From: Candidatus Curtissbacteria bacterium RIFCSPLOWO2_02_41_11
Lineage (GTDB): Bacteria > Patescibacteriota > Microgenomatia > Curtissbacterales > GWA2-41-24
Reading direction: 5' to 3'
DNA: 64,000 bases
Assembly (NCBI GenBank): GCA_001775055.1
Contig: MFBU01000015.1
Coordinates: forward strand, 4,487 to 68,486
Below the pieces are notes generated by a model, which was not told the origin of the DNA, ran no database searches, and saw only the letters and a list, made by a program, of their open reading frames with translations. This document shows, in pieces, positions 3,623 to 60,972 of the stretch. Both the position numbers and the translations under genes were made by a program. Positions within the stretch are counted from its first letter, which is position 1. Each line of letters opens with the position of its first letter.

Positions 3623-6541
3623 CTAACCTATTCTAATTTCTAGCTTTGAGGATTTTATCAACCTCTTAGCCAAAGTTTCGCGCTTGATGTAATCTTCAAA
3701 TTCTTTCGGCCAAGAAGGTAAACGGACAATAATTTTCTCACTAAGATTACAGCCTGCCTCTTTTCTAGCCTGCTGAATTTGCCGAACAATTTCCCGAGCT
3801 TGCCCTTCAGCTAATGCTTGATTGCCGGCACTTTTAAGATGTGTGATATTACCGCTAACAGCAAATTCTTTCCCTATCCCTTTAAATATTCCCTCATACT
3901 CTAATTCTTTAACATTGACTTCATCTCTGAGTATTTTTAAAACGCTTTCCGAGATTGGTGCTGGTCCTTCATACGTAATATTGATTAGAGGAATTCTTAC
4001 TTTAATCTCGCTCATTTTTCTAAAGGCATGAATTACAGATGCGAGTTTTATTGCATTTTCCATGTCCTTCTCTATTTGCGGTTCTGATTTTAACTTTTCT
4101 AGATCGGGCCAGTTGGAAAGGTGAACTGATTGTTTACCTGTTAAATTCCTATATATCTCATCACTTACAAAGGGAATCATTGGCGCTAATACTTTTGAAT
4201 ACTCGGTTAATGTAATATACAGAGCTTGATAGGCATCATCTTTGTCCTGGGCATTTTCGGCTGTTGGACCAATTCTGTCTCTTGACCGTCTAACAAACCA
4301 ATTTGATACGTCTCTGATTACAAAAATTTCTGCATTTCCAATTGCATCTGCAGCATTATACCGTTCTAGGGCCTTTTGAACATTTTCTATATTTCCTCTT
4401 AATCTTGAAAGTAACCAGCGGTCTAGTACATTTACAGGTTGAAATTTATCTTTGAGGGACCAATTTTCAGTATTGGCGTAGTTTACGAAAAATGCATAAA
4501 CATTCCAAAGTCTTAAATAAAACCAACGTCTCACCTCATCTGCCCGATGGTAACCAAATAACAAATTGTCTACCGGATTCTGCCGTAGATACATCCAGCG
4601 CATAACATCAACGCCGATTTTATCTGCAGCATCGTTAAACTCGATGGCATTGCCTTTGCTTTTGTGCATTTCCTCACCTTTTTCGTCAAGAAGCGTGGCA
4701 AAACCTAAAACAGTTTTTGTGGGATTGGTGTTTTTAAGAACGGTTGACATGGCAATAAGACTGTAAAACCAATTTTTGAATTGACCAGGGAATGATTCGG
4801 TAATAAAATCGGCCGGAAACCAATCAGGCGGCATGGTTGAAAAAGGTACAATGCCGGCGTCAAGCCAAGGATTGCCAACATCGGGAATTCTGAAGGACAC
4901 TTCCCGACACTTGGAACATCTGATCTTTACCGAATCAATCCATGGTCGGTGTGGTGAGTTCCCTTCAAATTTGTCCCAGCCTTCGACTGCTTTACTCTTG
5001 AACTCTTCTTTGCTTCCAATTACCTCAAAATTACCGCATTTTGCGCATTCCCAAACGGGCAGAGCCAGACCCCAATAGCGTTTTTTGGAAATAAGCCAAT
5101 CTTGCATATTGGCAAGCCAATCAAGCTCGCGCTCCAAACCCCAAGATGGAATCCAGTTGATTTTTCTGGCAACTTTTATCATTTGTTGTCTTAAGGTCTC
5201 TTCCGACTTCTGACTTCCGACTTCTGACTTCCGATCCATGGCAATATACCATTCATCTACCACTCGCCAAACAAGTTCGGTTTTGCAGCGCCAGCAGACC
5301 GGATAACGGTGGGTATAGTCTTCAATTTTAAATAAGACGCCTTTCGCCTTTAGCTTTTCGATAACTAGGCTTGGATTTTCTTTGGCATTTTTGCCGGTTA
5401 GATCATCGAATCCTTCGATGTAGTTGGCTGATTCATCAATTGACTCAACGATGGCTAACTTTTCTTTTTTCGCCAAATCAAAATCTTCCTCACCCGCGCC
5501 AGGAGCGATGTGAACTAATCCTGTCCCCTCTTCGGCAGTAACTAGGTCTTTATCGGCAACGATTTTATGTTTGACTCCTTTAAGTGCCGGGAGTTCATCG
5601 AATACTCCTTCATAAGTAAGTCCGACTAATTCCTTGCCCTTGAGCAATTTTGGGGGTCTCTGATTAAAACCAAGTGATTTAGCTATGGTTGATTCGATGA
5701 TTAAAGATTCTCCATTGATTTTCCAAAATCCATATTTAAGCTCTGGATTAACGGCAATGGCAACATTTGATGGCAGAGTCCAGGGCGTCGTTGTCCAGAC
5801 GAGGAGGAACAATTGACCTTTGCCGCCGTTGGCGAGCCTCGCCCTTCGCGGGACTCTTGACTCTTGACTCTTGACTCTATACTTTACATAGACTGCCTTG
5901 TGAGTTATTTCCTGATATTCTTCGGTTAAAATCTCGTGCTGGGAAATGGCTGTGCCGCAGCGGGGACACCAGGGAACAGAATCTCTTCCCTTATATAAAT
6001 ATCCCTTTTGATGACAAACTTTTAAGAAATTCCAGATAGCATAGTTATTTTCATCGGATGAGGTGTGGTAGGAGTTGTCCCAGTCCATAAAATAGCCAAG
6101 ACGCTTGCTTTGTTCAGTCTGGATTTTTGAATATTTTTTGACGCGCTCTTTGCAAAGATTAACAAATTTGTCGATGCCAAATTTTTCGATATCCTTTTTA
6201 TTTTTAAAACCAAGCTCTTTTTCGACTTCGACTTCGACCCAAAGGCCCTGTTCGTCAAAGCCATTTTGAAAACGCTGTTTTGCGCCTTGCATATTGTAAA
6301 AGCGCTGCCAGAGATCCTTGTAAGTTCGGCCCCAGGCGTGGTGAACGCCCATGGGGTTGTTGGCAGTAATCGGACCGTCAAGAAAGGAGAATTTTTTCTT
6401 AGAGTTTTTGTTTTTTTCTAAATATTTTTTGACAATTCCCTCTTTATACCAATTCTCGAGCAGCCTTTTTTCCATAGCCACAAAATCCTGCTTGGGATCA
6501 ACCGGTTTAAATTTGCCACTTTTTCCTACCATGTGTGTCAT
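3623..6541 (-). CDS. ileS: isoleucyl-tRNA synthetase (class I); real start may be the second ATG at 6532 (MVGKSGK) because the first ATG lies inside the -10 box
   Basis: The HIGH-region variant is PITANNPMGVHHAWGRT and KMSKS is present as KSKGN. Zinc-knuckle-like CPRC/CWRC/CAKC/CSKC pairs are present, as is the WTTTPWTLPSN editing-domain motif. At 972 aa it contains two low-complexity insertions encoded by heptamer repeats. Confidence 0.85.
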   Translation of the reverse strand: MTHMVGKSGKFKPVDPKQDFVAMEKRLLENWYKEGIVKKYLEKNKNSKKKFSFLDGPITANNPMGVHHAWGRTYKDLWQRFYNMQGAKQRFQNGFDEQGLWVEVEVEKELGFKNKKDIEKFGIDKFVNLCKERVKKYSKIQTEQSKRLGYFMDWDNSYHTSSDENNYAIWNFLKVCHQKGYLYKGRDSVPWCPRCGTAISQHEILTEEYQEITHKAVYVKYRVKSQESRVPRRARLANGGKGQLFLLVWTTTPWTLPSNVAIAVNPELKYGFWKINGESLIIESTIAKSLGFNQRPPKLLKGKELVGLTYEGVFDELPALKGVKHKIVADKDLVTAEEGTGLVHIAPGAGEEDFDLAKKEKLAIVESIDESANYIEGFDDLTGKNAKENPSLVIEKLKAKGVLFKIEDYTHRYPVCWRCKTELVWRVVDEWYIAMDRKSEVGSQKSEETLRQQMIKVARKINWIPSWGLERELDWLANMQDWLISKKRYWGLALPVWECAKCGNFEVIGSKEEFKSKAVEGWDKFEGNSPHRPWIDSVKIRCSKCREVSFRIPDVGNPWLDAGIVPFSTMPPDWFPADFITESFPGQFKNWFYSLIAMSTVLKNTNPTKTVLGFATLLDEKGEEMHKSKGNAIEFNDAADKIGVDVMRWMYLRQNPVDNLLFGYHRADEVRRWFYLRLWNVYAFFVNYANTENWSLKDKFQPVNVLDRWLLSRLRGNIENVQKALERYNAADAIGNAEIFVIRDVSNWFVRRSRDRIGPTAENAQDKDDAYQALYITLTEYSKVLAPMIPFVSDEIYRNLTGKQSVHLSNWPDLEKLKSEPQIEKDMENAIKLASVIHAFRKMSEIKVRIPLINITYEGPAPISESVLKILRDEVNVKELEYEGIFKGIGKEFAVSGNITHLKSAGNQALAEGQAREIVRQIQQARKEAGCNLSEKIIVRLPSWPKEFEDYIKRETLAKRLIKSSKLEIRIG

Positions 6542-24069: not shown

Positions 24070-24121
24070 AATTTAAAGAGTACCACGAGTATCAAGAGTA
24101 CCACGGGTACCAAGAGTTTTT

Positions 24122-30281: not shown

Positions 30282-30369
30282 ATATTTTAAAGAGTACCAC
30301 AGCTTTTTTTTCTTTAGCCTTTGGTACTCATGGTACTATTGGTACACTTGATACTCCTTTTATTCTACC

Positions 30370-32946: not shown

Positions 32947-33893
32947 TTTTGGAGGGCAAACATAACAATTTTATCCAATAACTTAGAGTAGGAAATTCCG
33001 ATTGAGGCGGCGGATTTAGGAAAAAGGGAAACTGGGGTTAGACCGGGAATAGTGTTAACCTCCAAAACATAGACATCATTATCTTTGGTAATCATGTCGA
33101 CCCTAGCAAAACCCCGGCAGCCAAGGGTTTGGTAGGCTAAAAGAGCTGTGTTTTGGGCTTTTTTGGTTAAGGACTTTCCGATTCTGGCCGGCACAATTTC
33201 ATCGCAGAGTTTCTCATCGTATTTAGCTTCGTAATCGAAATATTCTTTTTTAGGAACAATTTCGATCAAAGGCAGGGCTTGAGGACGATCATTGCCTAAG
33301 ATCGGACAAGTGATTTCAATACCGTCAATAAATTCCTCGACTAAAGTTAAGGGACTAAAACTAAAGGCTAAGTTTAAGGCTTTTTTCAAATGCTTCTTTT
33401 TGCTAACCTTGGTTGTGCCAACTGAAGATCCTTGATTGTGGGGTTTAACAAAAACGGGTGGTTTAAATTTATGCCAAATCGGTTTTAGTTGATCGTTCTT
33501 CTTTACAATAAGATGATTGGGTACTTTTAGACCTGCATGAGTAAATAATTTCCTTGAGGAAATTTTGTCCATACCTAAGGCTGAAGCTAAAACTTTCGAG
33601 CCGGTGTAAGGAACACAAATCAATTCCAAAAAACCTTGGATAGCCCCATCTTCTCCGTATGGACCATGCATGGCGATAAAAAACAATTGACAATTGACAA
33701 TTGACAATTGACTAAGAGGATATTTTTTATTATTTAACTGGAAAGAGATGCCGTCGTTGGAAATAATAATTGGTAAAACTTCATATTTATTGGGATCGAG
33801 ATTTTTAGCCACTTCCCTACCAGAAGCCAAAGATATTTCATGTTCGGCGGATTTACCACCCATAAGAACTGCCACTCTGATTTTTTTCTTCAT
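32943..33893 (-). CDS. ddl: D-alanine--D-alanine ligase
   Basis: It has an ATP-grasp fold with the EVNTIPG motif. It contains an in-frame heptamer-repeat tract. Confidence 0.85.
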   Translation of the reverse strand: MKKKIRVAVLMGGKSAEHEISLASGREVAKNLDPNKYEVLPIIISNDGISFQLNNKKYPLSQLSIVNCQLFFIAMHGPYGEDGAIQGFLELICVPYTGSKVLASALGMDKISSRKLFTHAGLKVPNHLIVKKNDQLKPIWHKFKPPVFVKPHNQGSSVGTTKVSKKKHLKKALNLAFSFSPLTLVEEFIDGIEITCPILGNDRPQALPLIEIVPKKEYFDYEAKYDEKLCDEIVPARIGKSLTKKAQNTALLAYQTLGCRGFARVDMITKDNDVYVLEVNTIPGLTPVSLFPKSAASIGISYSKLLDKIVMFALQK

Positions 33894-39416: not shown

Positions 39417-40611
39417 TTAGTCTCCTTTCGATAGCCTTTTTAACAACTTTAAACTCATCCCAAGGATACTCTTTTTTACCGTAGGTTATACTTTTTTCGT
39501 GACTCTTACCAAAAAGTGCAACAATATCGTCTTTTTGCGCTAACTTGACGGCAAATTCGATGGCCTTTACCCGATCATAAATTTGATAAAAATCTTTATT
39601 CTCTTTTTTCCCTCTTGATGTTAATCCTTTGGCGATCTGATCACAGATATCTTCGACCTTCTCACTTCTGGGATCTTCGGCAGTTAAGACTGAAATGTCG
39701 GCGCCTTCGGCTGCAGTTTTGCCCATCAGACTTCTTTTTGTCTTATCGCGCTCTCCAGCTGCGCCGAAAACGGCAATCAATTTGGATTTGGGATTTGGAA
39801 CTTGGGATTTTATAGTTCTAAGAGATCGTTCTAGAGCATTTGGGGTATGTGCAAAATCGACGATTACCTTGAAATTCTGACCAAGATTGATCTCCTCCAT
39901 TCTGCCTAAAACTCCTTTGAAGTTATTTAAGGCCTTTTGGATTTTGGACTTATAGATACCCAAAGTACTGGTGGCTACAGCAGCAGCCAGTGCATTGGCC
40001 AAGTTGTAATCGCCGACAATTTTTAGATTGAGGGGAAAATTTTTAAGGTTAAAATCAGCCGAAGAGTTGAGAGAATAGGTAATAGCCTGACCATCTACCT
40101 TTGATTTTAGAAAATCAAATGATCTGTCATCGGCATTAAGGATTGAAAAGTTGACATTTTTAAAAAGTTTGGCTTTGGCTTGAGCATAACTTTGCCAGCT
40201 TTTGTGATAATCCAAATGCTCATGAGAAATGTTAGTGATAACCGCAACCTTAAATTTAACGAAAGCTAAGCGATTTTGATCCAAGCCATGGGAAGTCGCT
40301 TCTAATACGAAATATTGACTACCCAAATCAACCGCCTTTTTCAAAAACTTTTGGACTTGCCAAGGATTAGGCGTAGTAACATGGAAACCGGTATCAAAGG
40401 TTTTAGGACCAATTCTGGCCGCAACTGATGAAATCATAGAAACTTTGAAACCTACTGCTTTTAAGATCTCATAAATCATCTGAACGGTAGTAGTTTTGCC
40501 GTCCGTGCCGGTTACGCCAATGATAACTAAATCCTTAGATGGAAAATTGAAGATGAGAGCAGCCAAAAAAGCCTGGACAAAATGATAGTAATTTTTAATT
40601 TTCTGCCACAT
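39406..40611 (-). CDS. murE: Mur ligase, probable UDP-MurNAc-L-Ala-D-Glu--diamino acid ligase (short form, 401 aa)
   Basis: The P-loop is GVTGTDGKTTT. It sits in the dcw position between ftsI and murC. Confidence 0.65.
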   Translation of the reverse strand: MWQKIKNYYHFVQAFLAALIFNFPSKDLVIIGVTGTDGKTTTVQMIYEILKAVGFKVSMISSVAARIGPKTFDTGFHVTTPNPWQVQKFLKKAVDLGSQYFVLEATSHGLDQNRLAFVKFKVAVITNISHEHLDYHKSWQSYAQAKAKLFKNVNFSILNADDRSFDFLKSKVDGQAITYSLNSSADFNLKNFPLNLKIVGDYNLANALAAAVATSTLGIYKSKIQKALNNFKGVLGRMEEINLGQNFKVIVDFAHTPNALERSLRTIKSQVPNPKSKLIAVFGAAGERDKTKRSLMGKTAAEGADISVLTAEDPRSEKVEDICDQIAKGLTSRGKKENKDFYQIYDRVKAIEFAVKLAQKDDIVALFGKSHEKSITYGKKEYPWDEFKVVKKAIERRLNAK

Positions 40612-43153: not shown

Positions 43154-44035
43154 TTAAATTCTTTCCGCAACGCGCAATTTGGCGCTTCTGGCACGCGGAT
43201 TCGCTTCAATTTCCGAATTTTCGGGGCCGATTGGCTTTGGAGTCAAAATCTTAAGTCTCGACTCCTGCTTGAAGAATCGTTTGACTATTCCATCTTCAAG
43301 CGAGTGATAACTCACAATCACCAATCGGCCTCCAATTTCTAGCAAATCTACAGTCTGCGGTAAAGAATCTTCTAAATTTAAAAGTTCGCTATTGACAACA
43401 AGTCTTAAGGCCAAAAAAGTCTTTGTCGCCGGATGAATCCTTTTGTTTTTTCTTTTAATGTGCCTTGCGTAAACTGCCTCAACAATCTTGGCAAGTTCAG
43501 TTGTCGTTTCAATTGTTTTTACCTGACGGGCGCGACAAATAGCGTCAGCAATTGGCCAACTAAGCTCTTCTTGAGAATACGTCTTAAAAATTTCATTTAA
43601 CCTCCTTTTGTCAAAATTATTAACTAGATCAAATGCCCGCACATTAAGATTTGGATCCATGCGCATATCCAAAGGCCCCTCGTGGATAAAGCTAAATCCT
43701 CTTCTTGCTTCCTCTAGTTGATGTGACGAAACGCCTAGATCGAAAAGGATGCCGGATAGTTGACTAAAACCTTCGCTTTTGGCAATTTCCCCGATCTGAC
43801 TAAAATTCCCGCAAACCAAAACCAACTTTTGGCTTTTAGCTTTTAGCTTTTGGCTTTTTTTAATGTGCTTTATCGCTTCTGGATCCCGATCAATCCCTAA
43901 AACCTTTCCACCTCGCTTTAAAAGCTCAAATGCATGGCCTCCGCCCCCAACGGTCGCATCGATAAACAATTTCCCCCTCGCTGGATCTAAAAATTCTATT
44001 GTCTTTTGTAAAAGTACCGGCCTGTGATATTTCAC
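43154..44035 (-). CDS. rsmH: 16S rRNA (cytosine1402-N4)-methyltransferase RsmH/MraW
   Basis: The N-terminus is HRPVLLQKTIEFL and the SAM-binding motif is DATVGGGGHA. Confidence 0.9.
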   Translation of the reverse strand: MKYHRPVLLQKTIEFLDPARGKLFIDATVGGGGHAFELLKRGGKVLGIDRDPEAIKHIKKSQKLKAKSQKLVLVCGNFSQIGEIAKSEGFSQLSGILFDLGVSSHQLEEARRGFSFIHEGPLDMRMDPNLNVRAFDLVNNFDKRRLNEIFKTYSQEELSWPIADAICRARQVKTIETTTELAKIVEAVYARHIKRKNKRIHPATKTFLALRLVVNSELLNLEDSLPQTVDLLEIGGRLVIVSYHSLEDGIVKRFFKQESRLKILTPKPIGPENSEIEANPRARSAKLRVAERI

Positions 44036-47486: not shown

Positions 47487-48788
47487 TTAGGAAAATTTTT
47501 CCTCTAAGGTTTTAGCAAGTTTATCGATTTTGACTCTTTCCTGCTTCGTTGTATCACGATCGCGGATGGTAACTGTGTCATCTTCAAGAGTCTGGAAGTC
47601 GATGGTGATGCAGAATGGAGTACCGATTTCGTCTTGTGCATAGTAGCGCTTGCCGATATTGCCGCGATCGTCCCAAGCAACAGGAAGTAGTTGGTAGTTG
47701 GTAGTAAGTAGTTGGTAGATTGAACGGGCTTTTTTGACCAGATCGGGTTTGTTGGCAAGAAGCGGGAAAACGGCAATTTTAACCGGTGCCAGTTTCGGAT
47801 GAAGTTTTAAGACAATCCGATCCTTTTCCTCATGATAGGCATCAATTAAAAATGCGGTCATGGCTCTGCCTACTCCAACCGATGGTTCTATCACATACGG
47901 CACCATTTTTTTGCCTTTTTCCTCATCAAAATATGATAAATCTTGGCCACTTGCTTTGGCGTGGGCCGTAAGATCAAAGTCTGTACGATTGGCTATTCCC
48001 TCCAACTCCCCCCACTCCATGAAGGGCCAGTTGTATTCTATATCCACCGATCGAGTTGCATAATGGGCTCTTTCTGTTTCTTTGTGCTCGCGAAAGCGCA
48101 AATTTTGTTTCTTGATTCCCAGACTTATAAACCAATTCATTCTCTCCTTTTGCCAATAATCGAAGTCTTTTTCGGATTGATCTTTAAAGATAAAGTACTC
48201 CAATTCCATCATTTCAAATTCACGAACTCTGAATAAGAAATTGCCGGTGGTAATTTCGTTTCGAAAGCCTTTGCCGATTTGGGCAATTCCGAAAGGGAGT
48301 TTGACTCGCATGGTATCAACAACATTTCTGAAGTTGACAAAAATTCCTTGGGCAGTTTCCGGCCGCAGATAAGTTTCGGATGCTTTGTCTTCAACTGGAC
48401 CGATGTGAGTTTTGAACATTAGATTGAACATTTGTGGCTTTGTCCAGTTATTTTTGCCACAATTTGGGCACTTTTTATCTTTCGGCAAAATATCTTCCCG
48501 GAAACGCAAATGGCAATTTTTGCACTCAGTAAGAGGATCGGCAAAACTTTCGACATGACCGGAAGTCTGCCAAACCTTTTGATTCATTAAAATGCTGCTA
48601 TCTAAACCAACAATGTTGTCGCGTTTTCTGACAATGTTTTCCCACCAAGCAGTCTTGATATTGCCGGCGAGTTCAACCCCAAGTGGTCCTAAATCGTAGA
48701 TGCCACCAATACCGCCATAGATTTCGGATCCTGGAAAAACAAAGCCGCGACGCTTAGTTAGAGAAACTATTTTTTCAAGAGTTGTCAT
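47487..48788 (-). CDS. glyQS: glycyl-tRNA synthetase, dimeric alpha2 type
   Basis: The N-terminus is KRRGFVFPGSEIYGGIGGIYDLGPLG. Class-II motifs are present, as is a C-terminal anticodon-binding domain. Confidence 0.85.
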   Translation of the reverse strand: MTTLEKIVSLTKRRGFVFPGSEIYGGIGGIYDLGPLGVELAGNIKTAWWENIVRKRDNIVGLDSSILMNQKVWQTSGHVESFADPLTECKNCHLRFREDILPKDKKCPNCGKNNWTKPQMFNLMFKTHIGPVEDKASETYLRPETAQGIFVNFRNVVDTMRVKLPFGIAQIGKGFRNEITTGNFLFRVREFEMMELEYFIFKDQSEKDFDYWQKERMNWFISLGIKKQNLRFREHKETERAHYATRSVDIEYNWPFMEWGELEGIANRTDFDLTAHAKASGQDLSYFDEEKGKKMVPYVIEPSVGVGRAMTAFLIDAYHEEKDRIVLKLHPKLAPVKIAVFPLLANKPDLVKKARSIYQLLTTNYQLLPVAWDDRGNIGKRYYAQDEIGTPFCITIDFQTLEDDTVTIRDRDTTKQERVKIDKLAKTLEEKFS

Positions 48789-50309: not shown

Positions 50310-50464
50310 GCAACTCTAGTATCGAGTATTAAGTATTTAGTATCAAGCATTTGAGAAGATTAAATTTGGCGATATCAGCAGTTCGCCATTTGTCAAACGC
50401 AGGGCGCTCCTCTGCTAAATCATGCAATGATTTATATCAGACAAAGTGCTGATATATTTTTATG

Positions 50465-54209: not shown

Positions 54210-55329
54210 ATGATGCCACTTTCTCTCTCAACTGTCTGACAAAATTAACTCTTGAAAATCTTAAGGCATTTTGCCGACAGGTGTGACTTTTCCATTTTAC
54301 CTTAGTTTGTCTGTTAATTGCATCTTGAATAGACATGGGAGATTGATTGTTAAACAAGATGCCGGTTTTACCATTTTCAATAATCTCTGAAACTCCGCTT
54401 GTTTGATAAGCAATAACCGGTACGCCGCATGCCCCAGCTTCAACTGCCGCAATACCAAAATCCTCCTGTTGGGTAACAATTAGCCCACGGGAATTTTGAT
54501 AGAGCTCGCGAAGTTTCTCTTTAGTAACTTTACCGAGAAACTCAATTTTGTAGTTGGTAGTTGGTAGTTGGTAGTTGGTAGTTAATTTCTTGAGTCTGGT
54601 CTTATCCAGACCTGTTCCCACAATCTTGAGATTAAAATTAAGGTTTTGGGTGGCTCGAATAGCAATATCGATTTTTTTCCATTTAACTAATCGTGAGACT
54701 ACCAGATAATAATTTTGGCTTTTAAGTCTCCAATTGTGAACTTTGGCGATCTTGAAAAAGTTTAAATCCGCAAATGGGTAAATTACATCTGATTGATAAC
54801 CGTAGTGTTTTTTAAGATTTTGGGCGATATTTTGGGAATTGGCAATGTAATGATCGACTCGAGATGACGAGGCCAGATCCCATTTCTTAAGCCAGGCCAA
54901 AAATGGTTTCAGGATTAATCTGAGAATTGGCGGTAAATAATCTCTCTGGACTTTTTCATTCCACAAAAATCTCGGGAGACTATTAAGATAGCATATGTGG
55001 ACAGTTTTTGGTTTAGTGATTATTGATTTGGCAAAACGGGTAGTTGAGGAGATAACAATATCAAATTCATCAAAATTAAAACTTTCAAAGGCTAAAGGAT
55101 ATAGAGGTAAAAGGACTTTGTAGAACTTGGTCGCTAAGGGGATTTTTTGGATGAATGAGGGTCGGACCCTATTTCTGTTTATTGTGGCGGGCAATTTATT
55201 CCAGTCAACAACTGATGTGTAGATCGGGGCATCCGGCCAAATTGAAGCAATGGTCGCAAACAAACTTTCCGCTCCTCCAGCTTGCACGAAGTCATCGTGT
55301 ACTAACGCTATTTTAGGTTGATAGGACAT
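54190..55329 (-). CDS. glycosyltransferase family 4
   Basis: It has a GT4 C-terminal domain (EDFGIAAVEAGACGVPVIA). It contains a GGTAGTT heptamer tract. Confidence 0.7.
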   Translation of the reverse strand: MSYQPKIALVHDDFVQAGGAESLFATIASIWPDAPIYTSVVDWNKLPATINRNRVRPSFIQKIPLATKFYKVLLPLYPLAFESFNFDEFDIVISSTTRFAKSIITKPKTVHICYLNSLPRFLWNEKVQRDYLPPILRLILKPFLAWLKKWDLASSSRVDHYIANSQNIAQNLKKHYGYQSDVIYPFADLNFFKIAKVHNWRLKSQNYYLVVSRLVKWKKIDIAIRATQNLNFNLKIVGTGLDKTRLKKLTTNYQLPTTNYKIEFLGKVTKEKLRELYQNSRGLIVTQQEDFGIAAVEAGACGVPVIAYQTSGVSEIIENGKTGILFNNQSPMSIQDAINRQTKVKWKSHTCRQNALRFSRVNFVRQLREKVASYGERRK

Positions 55330-59775: not shown

Positions 59776-60972
59776 TCATACGAATACTGACTCGTAGACT
59801 CTCAAAGTTTCTTTTGCCATTCTTTGCCAAGAGTATTTTCTGACTTGCTGCAAACCACTGTCAATAAGTCTTGATCTGATCTTACTGTCAGATACTACCT
59901 GATTGATTTTTGAGGCGATGTCTTCTGGGTCGTTTGGATCAAAATATAAAGCCGCATCGCCATAAATTTCCTTAAGTGTTAGGATATCAGAGCAAACGAC
60001 AGGAATTTTGGCGGCCATGGCATTGAGACCGGGAATGCCGAAGCCTTCGGAAAGCGAGGGGAAAACATAGGCTTTCGCTTGGCGGAAAAGCACTGACAAT
60101 TCTCTAGCCGGAATATAGCTGGTCATAATTACCCTACCATTTAGCTTTTGATCTTGCACCTGTTTTGCAAGTCTTTGCCAGAACACGTCTCTTGAGCAAA
60201 CGAGAGTGAGTTTCAAGTTTCTGGTTTCTGGTTTATGGTTTATGGTTAAAATTTTGAATGCTTCAAGAAGCTTTTCTAGATTCTTATGCGGATAAGCATT
60301 GCCGACATAGATCATGAAGGGCGTTTTGATATGATACTCATTTAATAGTTTCGGGTTTCTAGTTTCTAGTTTCTGGTTATCAAAGTATTCTTCCTCTGCG
60401 GCTTCGTAGGTGACGACCACTTTTGAAGGATCAATTCGAAACGTACTAATGACTTCCTCTTTGATGTTTTTTGAGGGGACAATTATTTTTGCAGATTTTT
60501 TAATTGCATGGGCTATGACTTGCCGGTAAGCTAGTCTTTTGGCTTTAAAAATCAATAAGTTGCGGGCAGTTGTTGATGTTTCGGCAAATTGATGATGGAT
60601 AAGATCATGAATGGTCACAATAAATTCGCCTTTAAATTCGCTTCGCTCATGTAATCCGAGAAGGTTAAATCCGGGCGGATTATAAAAAATCGGCACATTA
60701 AAATGAGGAACATGTAAAAGGTCAAGGTTTTGGCTTCTAAAAATTTTAGGGAGTGTTACTTGCTCGATGAGGGAATACCAGGAAACATCGGCTAATATTT
60801 TTTTAAAGTTTTTGCCTAATTTGAGATAATCCCAATTCTCTTTTCGCAAAAAAATAAAATACTGATTTTGGGAATCGATCTTGACAAGATTCTGAATAAG
60901 TTTTTCCGTATATTTCCCAAGCCCGGTACCTGCCGGACCAACAAATCTGGCATCAATTCCAATTCTCACCAT
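59776..60972 (-). CDS. glycosyltransferase family 4
   Basis: The GT4 motifs are SLSEGFGIPGLNAMAAKIPVV. It has a good SD (GGAGG) and carries two heptamer tracts. Confidence 0.75.
   Translation of the reverse strand: MVRIGIDARFVGPAGTGLGKYTEKLIQNLVKIDSQNQYFIFLRKENWDYLKLGKNFKKILADVSWYSLIEQVTLPKIFRSQNLDLLHVPHFNVPIFYNPPGFNLLGLHERSEFKGEFIVTIHDLIHHQFAETSTTARNLLIFKAKRLAYRQVIAHAIKKSAKIIVPSKNIKEEVISTFRIDPSKVVVTYEAAEEEYFDNQKLETRNPKLLNEYHIKTPFMIYVGNAYPHKNLEKLLEAFKILTINHKPETRNLKLTLVCSRDVFWQRLAKQVQDQKLNGRVIMTSYIPARELSVLFRQAKAYVFPSLSEGFGIPGLNAMAAKIPVVCSDILTLKEIYGDAALYFDPNDPEDIASKINQVVSDSKIRSRLIDSGLQQVRKYSWQRMAKETLRVYESVFV

Follow-up and report, generated by a model that had tools for sequence, protein, structure and literature searches.

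The DNA considered here is a stretch of 64,000 nucleotides of Candidatus Curtissbacteria bacterium RIFCSPLOWO2_02_41_11 (assembly GCA_001775055.1, contig MFBU01000015.1, positions 4,487 to 68,486), hereafter the window, in which two genes of the minus strand carry a short tandem array of the same heptanucleotide. One of them, glyQS, encodes a class II glycyl-tRNA synthetase (GlyRS), and the other, GT4A, a glycosyltransferase of the GT4 family. The two tracts lie 6.8 kb apart in the same orientation, both are translated in frame within their host open reading frames (ORFs), and in both the unit read on the sense strand is AACTACC. The exact proteins are present in public records of Candidatus Curtissbacteria GW2011_GWC2_38_9, whose glycine-tRNA ligase is the exact GlyRS, and of close relatives, all belonging to the Microgenomates group of the candidate phyla radiation (CPR, Patescibacteria). 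In an earlier sequence-only reading, the pair had been attributed to a copy-and-paste process of mini-insertion; here, both tracts are examined as members of a larger population of period-7 arrays. Coordinates follow the numbering of the window, L-numbers designate fetched loci or contigs, and P-numbers designate homologous proteins or alleles.

The same heptamer tract is indeed found in the two genes, in a degenerate form in glyQS and in a perfect form in GT4A. Read directly on the plus strand, the glyQS tract is AGTAGTT GGTAGTT GGTAGTA AGTAGTT GGTAGAT (47686..47720), where three of the five units fit the previously proposed (RGTAGTT)x5 exactly, but the other two have one mismatch each; Tandem Repeats Finder (TRF) delimits it at 47687..47718, with period 7, 4.6 copies, and 84% matches. 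The GT4A tract, described before as (GTAGTTG)x5 at 54550..54584, is perfect over 34 nucleotides (nt) (x4.9, 100% matches in TRF), but the base that closes the fifth unit, at 54584, is an A. The 13-mer GTAGTTGGTAGTT, allowing at most one mismatch, occurs seven times in the window, with all seven occurrences inside the two tracts, against 0.02 expected. The glyQS and GT4A loci are alike over 32 nt at 94% identity, and this likeness covers the arrays only, since it stops at their borders; no shared flanks, inverted repeats, or consistent target-site duplications were found between the two loci. The peptide TTNYQL, also put forward as evidence, is present in both proteins (GlyRS, ...SIYQLLTTNYQLLPVAW..., in wider context ...ARSIYQLLTTNYQLLPVAWDD...; GT4A, ...KKLTTNYQLPTTNYKIEF..., in wider context ...RLKKLTTNYQLPTTNYKIEFLG...), but it is common to them because the DNA unit is common and thus constitutes no independent evidence.

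In the AlphaFold model of GlyRS, the tract forms the C-terminal half of the predicted helix 348-364 and the loop 365-369, followed by the strand 370-372, in the anticodon-binding domain (mean pLDDT, the predicted local distance difference test, 77). In that of GT4A, it corresponds to the end of the helix 243-251 and the loop 252-261, before the strand 262-266, and this block has the lowest pLDDT of the protein (65, with a model mean of 88.9). Thus, according to the models, both tracts occupy the end of a helix and the loop preceding a strand in alpha/beta folds.

These tracts are not alone in the window. TRF detects about ten period-7 arrays of 27-35 nt with differing units (Table 1), and when only exact arrays of at least 2.5 copies are considered, eight are observed against 0.05 expected under a third-order Markov model of the window. 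The same count made in the window for exact repeats of that length with the remaining periods from 4 to 12 (4-6 and 8-12) gave essentially no enrichment. About nine of the ten or so arrays are located inside ORFs of at least 100 amino acids (aa), the hosts being the isoleucyl-tRNA synthetase IleRS (two or three arrays), the D-Ala-D-Ala ligase Ddl, a Mur ligase, RsmH, GlyRS, GT4A, and a second GT4 glycosyltransferase, GT4B (two arrays). Since such ORFs make up 87% of the window, this proportion represents no enrichment in genes; the arrays are simply not kept out of them. On the sense strand, the array units have a base composition of A 0.44, C 0.25, G 0.10, and T 0.21, versus A 0.31, C 0.19, G 0.21, and T 0.29 for the ORFs overall, and these A/C-rich units encode the polar residues N, Q, T, K, P, and S. 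AACTACC is the only unit found twice among the arrays of the window, all the others being different from each other. Both AACTACC tracts have the attributes of microsatellites: their units follow head to tail without spacers, such arrays are commoner than composition predicts, and, in the case of GT4A, the number of units is polymorphic (as read from a protein allele, P0243, described below).

Table 1. Host genes of the two AACTACC tracts and period-7 arrays identified in the window.
Feature	Position	Strand	Array	Encoded peptide, domains, or location
glyQS, class II glycyl-tRNA synthetase, 433 aa	47487..48788	-		Pfam tRNA-synt_2b and HGTP_anticodon; hosts the first array
GT4A, GT4 family glycosyltransferase, 379 aa	54190..55329	-		Pfam Glyco_transf_4 and Glycos_transf_1, cluster names; hosts the second array
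glyQS array, degenerate	47686..47720	-	ATCTACC AACTACT TACTACC AACTACC AACTACT (sense)	I-YQLLTTNYQLL-P
GT4A array, perfect	54550..54583	-	(AACTACC)x4.9	LTTNYQLPTTNYK
IleRS (972 aa) array	5200..5234	-	GAAGTCA/GAAGTCG, perfect at period 14	RKSEVGSQKSEE
IleRS array, perfect	5852..5878	-	(AGAGTCA)x3.9	RVKSQESRV
D-Ala-D-Ala ligase array, perfect	33683..33712	-	(GTCAATT)x4.3	SQLSIVNCQLF
Mur ligase array, imperfect	39780..39810	-	(AAATCCC)x4.6	KSQVPNPKSKL
RsmH array	43826..43858	-	(AAAAGCY)x4.7	KSQKLKAKSQK
GT4B array	60217..60247	-	AACCATA x2 then AACCAGA x2	LTINHKPETRN
GT4B interdomain-linker array	60346..60378	-	AGAAACT-like	QKLETRN
Weak period-7 array	50325..50351	.	AGTATTA x3.9, 75% matches	Intergenic, between recO and the DUF4012 gene

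In the first of the two GT4B arrays, the T-to-G change between units sits exactly where the reading frame would meet a TAA codon, and this switch is a mark left by selection against stop codons on an array that is translated in all three frames. As a separate observation, the alternation of GAAGTCA and GAAGTCG in the IleRS array at 5200..5234 is not the pattern that simple 21-nt steps would yield.

Period-7 arrays are also found in other CPR. The loci of relatives were fetched with GlyRS as bait, taking one genome per species, in slices of about 20 kb. CPR-labelled loci contain nine such arrays in 348 kb, seven of them in ORFs, and close relatives fetched later for GlyRS and GT4 contain 12 in 156 kb, eight of them in ORFs, so that the density across CPR loci ranges from 2.6 to 7.8 arrays per 100 kb. 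No period-7 array was found in 415 kb of Chloroflexi loci or in 83 kb of Firmicutes loci obtained with the same GlyRS query, and for the other periods from 5 to 11 there was nothing notable in any group of fetched loci. The CPR arrays do not show the predominantly intergenic placement that characterises the short tandemly repeated repetitive (STRR)-type sequences. We have found no relevant literature report of heptamer repeats in CPR/Patescibacteria or of the AACTACC unit itself.

The age and behaviour of the glyQS tract were studied by comparing 120 GlyRS homologs, arranged in a rough neighbour-joining tree. A segment of 12 residues, Y[QSGE]LL[TS]T[ND]Y[QSR]L[LRG]P, is present in all GlyRS of the clade of the window (P0001-P0009), including the most divergent of its tract-bearing members, P0009 (76% identity by BLASTP, 80% in the codon alignment), and it reappears, at about 64% identity, in two or more further clades. 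Most other homologs lack 3 aa (Y.DLKK.F---P) or 1 aa (YQDLKSNLQ-YP) of this segment. Period 7 with a CTAC core is kept in the tract-bearing glyQS DNA that was read, with the exception of L089, where the period is largely lost; it is also kept in the Patescibacteria locus L011, which has a perfect (CTACAAC)x4.9 at the same place of glyQS. The units differ among lineages, being CTACCAA in the window and L093, CTACTCA-type in L091, and CTAC[AT]G[TA] in L092 and L090. In the GlyRS of L091, TCA has replaced CAA as the codon that follows each Tyr, at two positions separated by 21 nt; when the DNA is divided into heptamers, several units have the same two substitutions in common, and thus the change is concerted. 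No variation in length was observed at this tract among ten aligned cluster members. The sequence-only reading held that tracts present and invariant at these positions across distantly related genomes would speak against its proposal: in glyQS, the tract is present in distant relatives, but it is not invariant.

The peptide of the glyQS tract, YQLLTTNYQLLP, is identical down to homologs of 83% identity and reappears in one GlyRS of only 64% identity, that of L087, in which five of the 12 codons differ, all synonymously. In this gene (10001..11332 of L087), the C-terminal segment of about 75 codons, which corresponds to the anticodon-binding domain and includes the tract, shows 80-89% nt identity to the window versus about 60% elsewhere in the gene. 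The L087 GlyRS is thus mosaic, which points to recombination between distant Microgenomates lineages; an independent origin of the identical tract in L087 was rejected on account of this segment.

The GT4A tract is located in a loop where arrays have long been established. The array is lacking in the syntenic orthologs of L087, L093, L094, and L052, and the gap with respect to L087, the closest array-less ortholog, is exactly 7 aa, a difference compatible with an empty site and, equally well, with a slippage step of three units. Among 120 homologs, the length of the loop between the conserved L246 and F264 is bimodal, with 9-12 residues in 72 proteins, 16-17 residues in 30, and few between. 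Within the class of 17 residues, 35% of residues are identical at lag 7 versus 2-8% at other lags, even though the peptides are diverse (window, TTNYQLPTTNYK; P0123, TTNHQPQTTNHK; P0122, TTDLGQLTIDNQ; P0128, AVSRQPSAVSGQ; P0133, SNVNGQLSNVNN; P0150, KVKSQKSKVRSK). The GT4A of L217 (P0123, 82% nt identity) contains AACTACC AACCACC AACCACA AACCACC AACCAC, 34 nt as in the window, with the same edge unit and with inner units that have a T-to-C change in common. Elsewhere, the units of this loop are TTGTCAA-type (L216), TCAACTA-type (L215), or AGGAGTC (L089). Judging from these comparisons, the presence of AACTACC at the GT4A loop is at least as old as the split from the ortholog of 82% nt identity, predating the species of the window, and the loop is a long-standing hot spot in which the perfection of the array reflects a recent homogenisation and not a recent arrival.

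A length variant has been identified in the 90%-identity cluster of GT4A. The protein P0243 (372 aa) has RLTTNYQ directly followed by IEFLG, exactly 7 aa fewer, equivalent to 21 nt or three units as read from the protein, and this short allele keeps LTTNYQ, i.e., about two units. All the full-length cluster members examined are in frame, the change of three units being the only length variant. The 7-aa allele and the bimodal loop lengths match what is expected from slippage in a 7-nt register once frameshifts in needed genes have been removed. At the same loop, it was also observed that the homologs P0124, P0162, P0182, and P0191, together with P0214 and P0235 with their long inserts, have much longer insertions (20-78 aa) with recurring peptides such as KAGIQ and WIP.QVRDD, which suggests another dispersed insertion sequence at this permissive site.

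Similar behaviour is found in other genes. The RsmH loop between ...IKK and L.LV.GNF contains five units in five lineages (AAAAGCY in the window, AAAAGTC in L091, GAAATTG in L093, AGTTCAC in L087, and AAATCAA in L030), and in L091, whose RsmH has 85% identity to that of the window, one identical base change is found in every unit. The interdomain linker and the first helix-strand loop of the GT4B paralogs likewise behave as hot spots. Some additional features have been noted around rsmH. In L087, the loop array (GTTCACA; 14770..14850) is broken by a 21-nt in-frame perfect palindrome, CCTGCCTGCCGGCAAGGCAGG, encoding ACLPARQ, and ACPP... peptides occur at the same loop in the more distant RsmH homologs of L045, L068, and L064. 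Directly downstream of rsmH, there are further heptamer arrays in L087 (AATTTCC, 15488..15520) and L093 (AAATTTC, 15003..15029), the former being, when reverse-complemented, the unit of the RsmH-loop array of L093.

From all these data, it is probable that the two tracts are in-frame heptanucleotide microsatellites, two members of a population that extends through Curtissbacteria and other CPR, generated by slippage, filtered by the reading frame, and restricted in their repertoire of units. It is proposed that strand slippage in a 7-nt register makes and resizes the arrays. Since 7 is not a multiple of 3, the three frames would be used in turn, giving a peptide with a period of 7 aa, and only the gain or loss of three units (21 nt, 7 aa) would keep an essential gene in frame. 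The survival of arrays would then be confined to permissive surface positions, typically a helix end and the loop before a strand, and to units that are free of stop codons in every frame. An established array could remain at its loop through long periods of divergence, with its unit drifting and becoming homogeneous again by concerted evolution; orthologs would then have arrays of the same length at the same place, with units that are related or quite different. Finally, glyQS and GT4A would share AACTACC through a restricted, recurring repertoire, seen also in other genes, in other CPR, and in intergenic arrays of cyanobacteria, for which sequence-dependent slippage, peptide selection in three frames, and copying between arrays are candidate causes. 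Slippage, the filters, and concerted evolution can together explain the period of the arrays, their specificity to certain lineages, their recurrence at hot spots, a length that stays constant when units change, and the allele that is 7 aa shorter; slippage as the engine is an inference based on the register of 7 nt, the steps of 21 nt, and the way in which units change in concert.

The restricted repertoire was analysed through a test of unit recurrence on 28-29 arrays in ORFs of at least 100 aa of CPR loci, collapsing orthologs, whose orthology was labelled manually, and permuting the bases within each unit as the null model, with only stop-free units allowed. In sense orientation, AACTACC is found in GlyRS, in GT4A, and as a perfect x4.4 array in the GT4B loop of L215; AAATCTC in ProRS (L040) and ArgRS (L055); AGTTCAC in RsmH (L087) and a GT4 (L094), and also in L052; and AAATTGG, in the form of GAAATTG-type arrays, in two genes of L093. 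By tally, units are shared in two of 40 pairs within genomes versus six of 352 pairs between genomes. An abundance of certain seeds as the cause of this reuse has been discarded, taking into account the ordinary or low rank of recurrent units among background 7-mers.

Beyond the fetched loci, an exact scan for (AACTACC)3 in JGI metagenomes retrieved at least 120 contigs with a GC content from 0.33 to 0.72. Among the matches listed, the arrays are mostly in short ORFs, probably being non-coding, and many contigs come from a single sample, ERZ1740052. Translated arrays were found in a GT4 linker (L117), in the B5 domain of PheRS-beta (L137), and near the N-terminus of a GH15 ORF (L125). A contig of the aforementioned sample, L130 (1..13444), contains about a dozen intergenic heptamer arrays with many units, including (GTAGTTG)x12.3 and an array of the TAACTGA class, and the named homologs of one of its genes are from Pleurocapsales-type cyanobacteria; on this basis, the AACTACC unit also forms part of the STRR-type heptamer repertoire of cyanobacteria. 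The start and end phases of 80 metagenomic AACTACC arrays are spread over all rotations. A special array length or phase was also discarded, the apparent excess of lengths of 6 modulo 7 among these arrays being due to perfect runs bounded by a phase-specific variant base within longer imperfect arrays.

Several of these results weigh against the slippage-based explanation. At non-orthologous sites, there are six pairs of identical units versus 1.5 expected (P about 0.0008), and four versus 1.3 (P about 0.011) when the GT4A array that prompted the analysis is left out, something that in-situ slippage with independent drift does not predict for unrelated sites. The recurrent units are not common 7-mers (AACTACC is in the 68th percentile of the background and AGTTCAC in the 30th), and thus seed frequency does not explain their reuse; slippage alone does not by itself explain the restricted repertoire. 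The glyQS tract adds 3 aa, and not 7, with respect to most homologs. Moreover, with respect to L093, glyQS as a whole has 75% identity, but the DNA of the tract has 97% and ranks in the top 1% of 12-codon windows, which could be due to selection at the nucleotide level or to local recombination; such unusual conservation is not found against L091 or L092. There are no one-unit length alleles among those seen, slippage being inferred and not witnessed. Nor does the slippage-based explanation account for the choice of 7 nt or for the clustering at about five units, the lower bound of this range being partly a detection threshold.

The alternative closest to the original proposal is that an array was copied between loci by ectopic gene conversion, template switching, or a mini-insertion activity, with glyQS perhaps acting as the donor to GT4, given the short distance and the same orientation of the two. 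It is considered unlikely, even if much of the recurrence is on its side: units are shared at non-orthologous sites beyond composition-matched chance, AACTACC reappears at a third site in the GT4B loop of L215, L093 has GAAATTG-type arrays in two different genes, and the RsmH loop swaps unrelated units, of which AGTTCAC and AAATTGG are known elsewhere too. A perfect GT4 array near a degenerate glyQS array is also compatible with a recent overwriting, and the dispersal of arrays with the same unit is equally an open problem for cyanobacterial and Beggiatoa repeats, as presented in PMC4679880. However, the two loci have no flank, target-site duplication, or inverted repeat in common, sharing is not concentrated within genomes, the remaining arrays of the window have other units, and the single length change seen is a clean step of three units, as slippage predicts. 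There was no recent joint insertion either, the GT4A unit being older than the 82% nt-identity split and the glyQS tract much older. Thus, the view of the tracts as insertions stands in so far as both add residues with respect to many homologs (3 aa in GlyRS; 7 aa in GT4 versus the closest array-less syntenic ortholog), but two recent insertions of one element have to be rejected for an ancient tract and an older unit that are only two of some nine or ten arrays. As for copying itself, simple coincidence is a poor account of the recurrence, but no copying mechanism has been found, and the process has been neither demonstrated nor dismissed. Unit co-variation between paired GlyRS and GT4A arrays could bear on the question, but contigs L215 and L216 end before glyQS, and L087 and L093 have the glyQS tract and no GT4A array. 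A mobile mini-element similar to miniature inverted-repeat transposable elements or Rickettsia palindromic elements (RPE) is disfavoured, since there are no common ends, inverted repeats, or consistent duplications, and the phases of the AACTACC arrays are spread over all rotations. A more general version, which we regard as rather unlikely, is that CPR, and perhaps cyanobacteria, have an active, sequence-selective process by which a limited set of heptamer arrays, of about five units each, is written or copied from site to site, including in-frame positions in surface loops of essential genes, the glyQS and GT4 tracts being true copies; templated ectopic synthesis or conversion between arrays would be the candidate processes.

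At the other extreme, both arrays could have arisen and drifted separately and share their unit by accident. About ten arrays make some 45 pairs, so that from base composition the probability of at least one identical pair in the window is estimated at about 0.03-0.05, and the finding was selected afterwards; against this, AACTACC is found at a third independent protein site, as well as in the GT4 linker of L117 and the PheRS-beta of L137, and other units recur in the permutation test with or without the prompting array, which makes plain coincidence improbable. A functional TTNYQL(P) motif gained convergently through selection on the proteins is very improbable. Some constraint does exist at the glyQS site, given that YQLLTTNYQLLP is kept to 83% identity and, with synonymous changes, in the 64%-identity GlyRS, but this last case is explained by the mosaic C-terminal segment; the GT4 array is perfect in its DNA, third codon positions included, within a surface loop modelled with low confidence, orthologous loops hold unrelated peptides of the same period and length, and the unit is used in non-coding cyanobacterial arrays. 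Short tandem repeats are prone to mis-assembly, but an artefact of sequencing or assembly in a low-complexity stretch is hardly credible here: independent ENA, JGI, and NCBI assemblies provide the exact GT4A on 44 contigs, the exact GlyRS is listed in 60 collection blocks, six independently assembled loci carry both arrays unchanged, and 34 nt is far below the read length. Other candidates were also rejected. AACTACC does not fit the X XXY YYZ pattern of a programmed -1 frameshift site, and both ORFs continue without interruption, with homology at either side of the tract; a search of the window for structured RNA with Rfam returned one tRNA only, and the sense strand of the GT4 array has no G; the changes are whole-unit and concerted and not adenine-specific, with no evidence for variation of the kind made by diversity-generating retroelements; and the arrays, perfect also at synonymous sites, extend over only about 1.6 heptads and do not correspond to heptad or coiled-coil selection.

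The proposal of in-frame microsatellites can be placed among known repeats. An excess of heptameric simple repeats in bacteria has been described, together with the hypothesis of slippage related to the polymerase footprint (Mrazek 2007, as reported in PMC4692102 and PMC4679880), whereas intragenic repeats reportedly favour units whose length is a multiple of three (Mrazek, Guo & Shah 2007, as reported in PMC4679880). The best-known heptamer families are intergenic: the cyanobacterial STRR, GGGAATC of Xanthomonas, and TAACTGA of Beggiatoa (Beggiatoaceae). With the prokaryotic heptanucleotide repeats, as reported from Mrazek, Guo & Shah (2007), the CPR arrays have in common the tandem 7-nt units, the period-7 excess, the lineage-dependent abundance, and the proposed slippage; they differ in being in frame in essential genes, in their recurrent loops, and in the 21-nt steps. 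The many short arrays, with what may be a limited set of favoured units and with the same unit at unrelated places without a known dispersal mechanism, resemble the STRR, Xanthomonas, and Beggiatoaceae repeats, and the nine or ten arrays within 64 kb of the window are in keeping with the abundance of STRR-type sequences. However, the latter are overwhelmingly intergenic, often longer, and belong to remote hosts, whereas CPR arrays are translated, of about five units, and constrained by the frame.

Phase-variable contingency loci, such as those of Haemophilus and Neisseria, also have a simple repeat within an ORF with a unit length that is not a multiple of 3, but they switch non-essential surface genes by changes of one unit, whereas here the hosts are essential (aminoacyl-tRNA synthetases, Ddl, Mur ligase, RsmH) and the alleles in frame. 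A phase-variable locus was therefore rejected, all examined full-length members being in frame and the only variant being of three units. RPE are selfish, palindromic DNA elements of about 100-150 bp, dispersed in frame in protein-coding genes. The tolerance of short extra in-frame segments in surface regions of many housekeeping proteins is alike in both cases; RPE, however, are not tandem 7-nt arrays, and the GC-rich palindromic mini-inserts found beside some arrays here, as at 5823..5852 of the window and in the RsmH of L087, are a separate feature. Finally, the tandem repeats of Borg proteins, with amino-acid units of 4-17 aa, are described as recently formed and of independent origins (PMC9879509). 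They are similar as fast-evolving perfect tandem repeats in ORFs that add loop or disordered segments, with seeding and slippage being discussed in that source, and different in that the arrays described here are built of 7-nt units translated in three frames, some of them being ancient and of fixed length.

Although the excess of heptanucleotide repeats in bacteria was already known, translated heptamer arrays in CPR housekeeping genes appear to be new. Heptanucleotide repeats have so far been treated as intergenic curiosities, and genic repeats were expected to have units divisible by three; CPR aminoacyl-tRNA synthetases and cell-wall enzymes carry three-frame arrays at the same loops across deep divergence, keeping their length while their units change in concert. 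If confirmed genome-wide, these arrays would represent a mutational process in its own right that gives CPR proteins lineage-specific loop insertions, with consequences for alignment, phylogeny, and structure prediction, as well as natural markers of replication-slippage behaviour in uncultured bacteria and a compact system for asking why particular heptamers spread. If array writing were true, the puzzle of STRR-type dispersal would gain a tractable model in small CPR genomes.

Two other kinds of short elements were observed in the window. Directly after the heptamer array at 5852..5878, IleRS contains a GC-rich in-frame segment of 30 nt on the minus strand (5823..5852), with the palindrome GGCGAG G CTCGCC, which encodes PRRARLANGG and is absent from the allele P0296 (at least 90% identity); it therefore appears to be a polymorphic mini-insertion of another kind. 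Moreover, two arrays of period 9 built around GTAC (AAGAGTACC / ACGAGTATC ...), located in intergenic positions at 24073..24117 and 30321..30356 and mutually inverted, lie each just upstream of the start of a minus-strand gene (24069 and 30281, respectively) and have in common an exact inverted match of 15 nt (TTTAAAGAGTACCAC / GTGGTACTCTTTAAA). They could be putative arrays of regulator binding sites.

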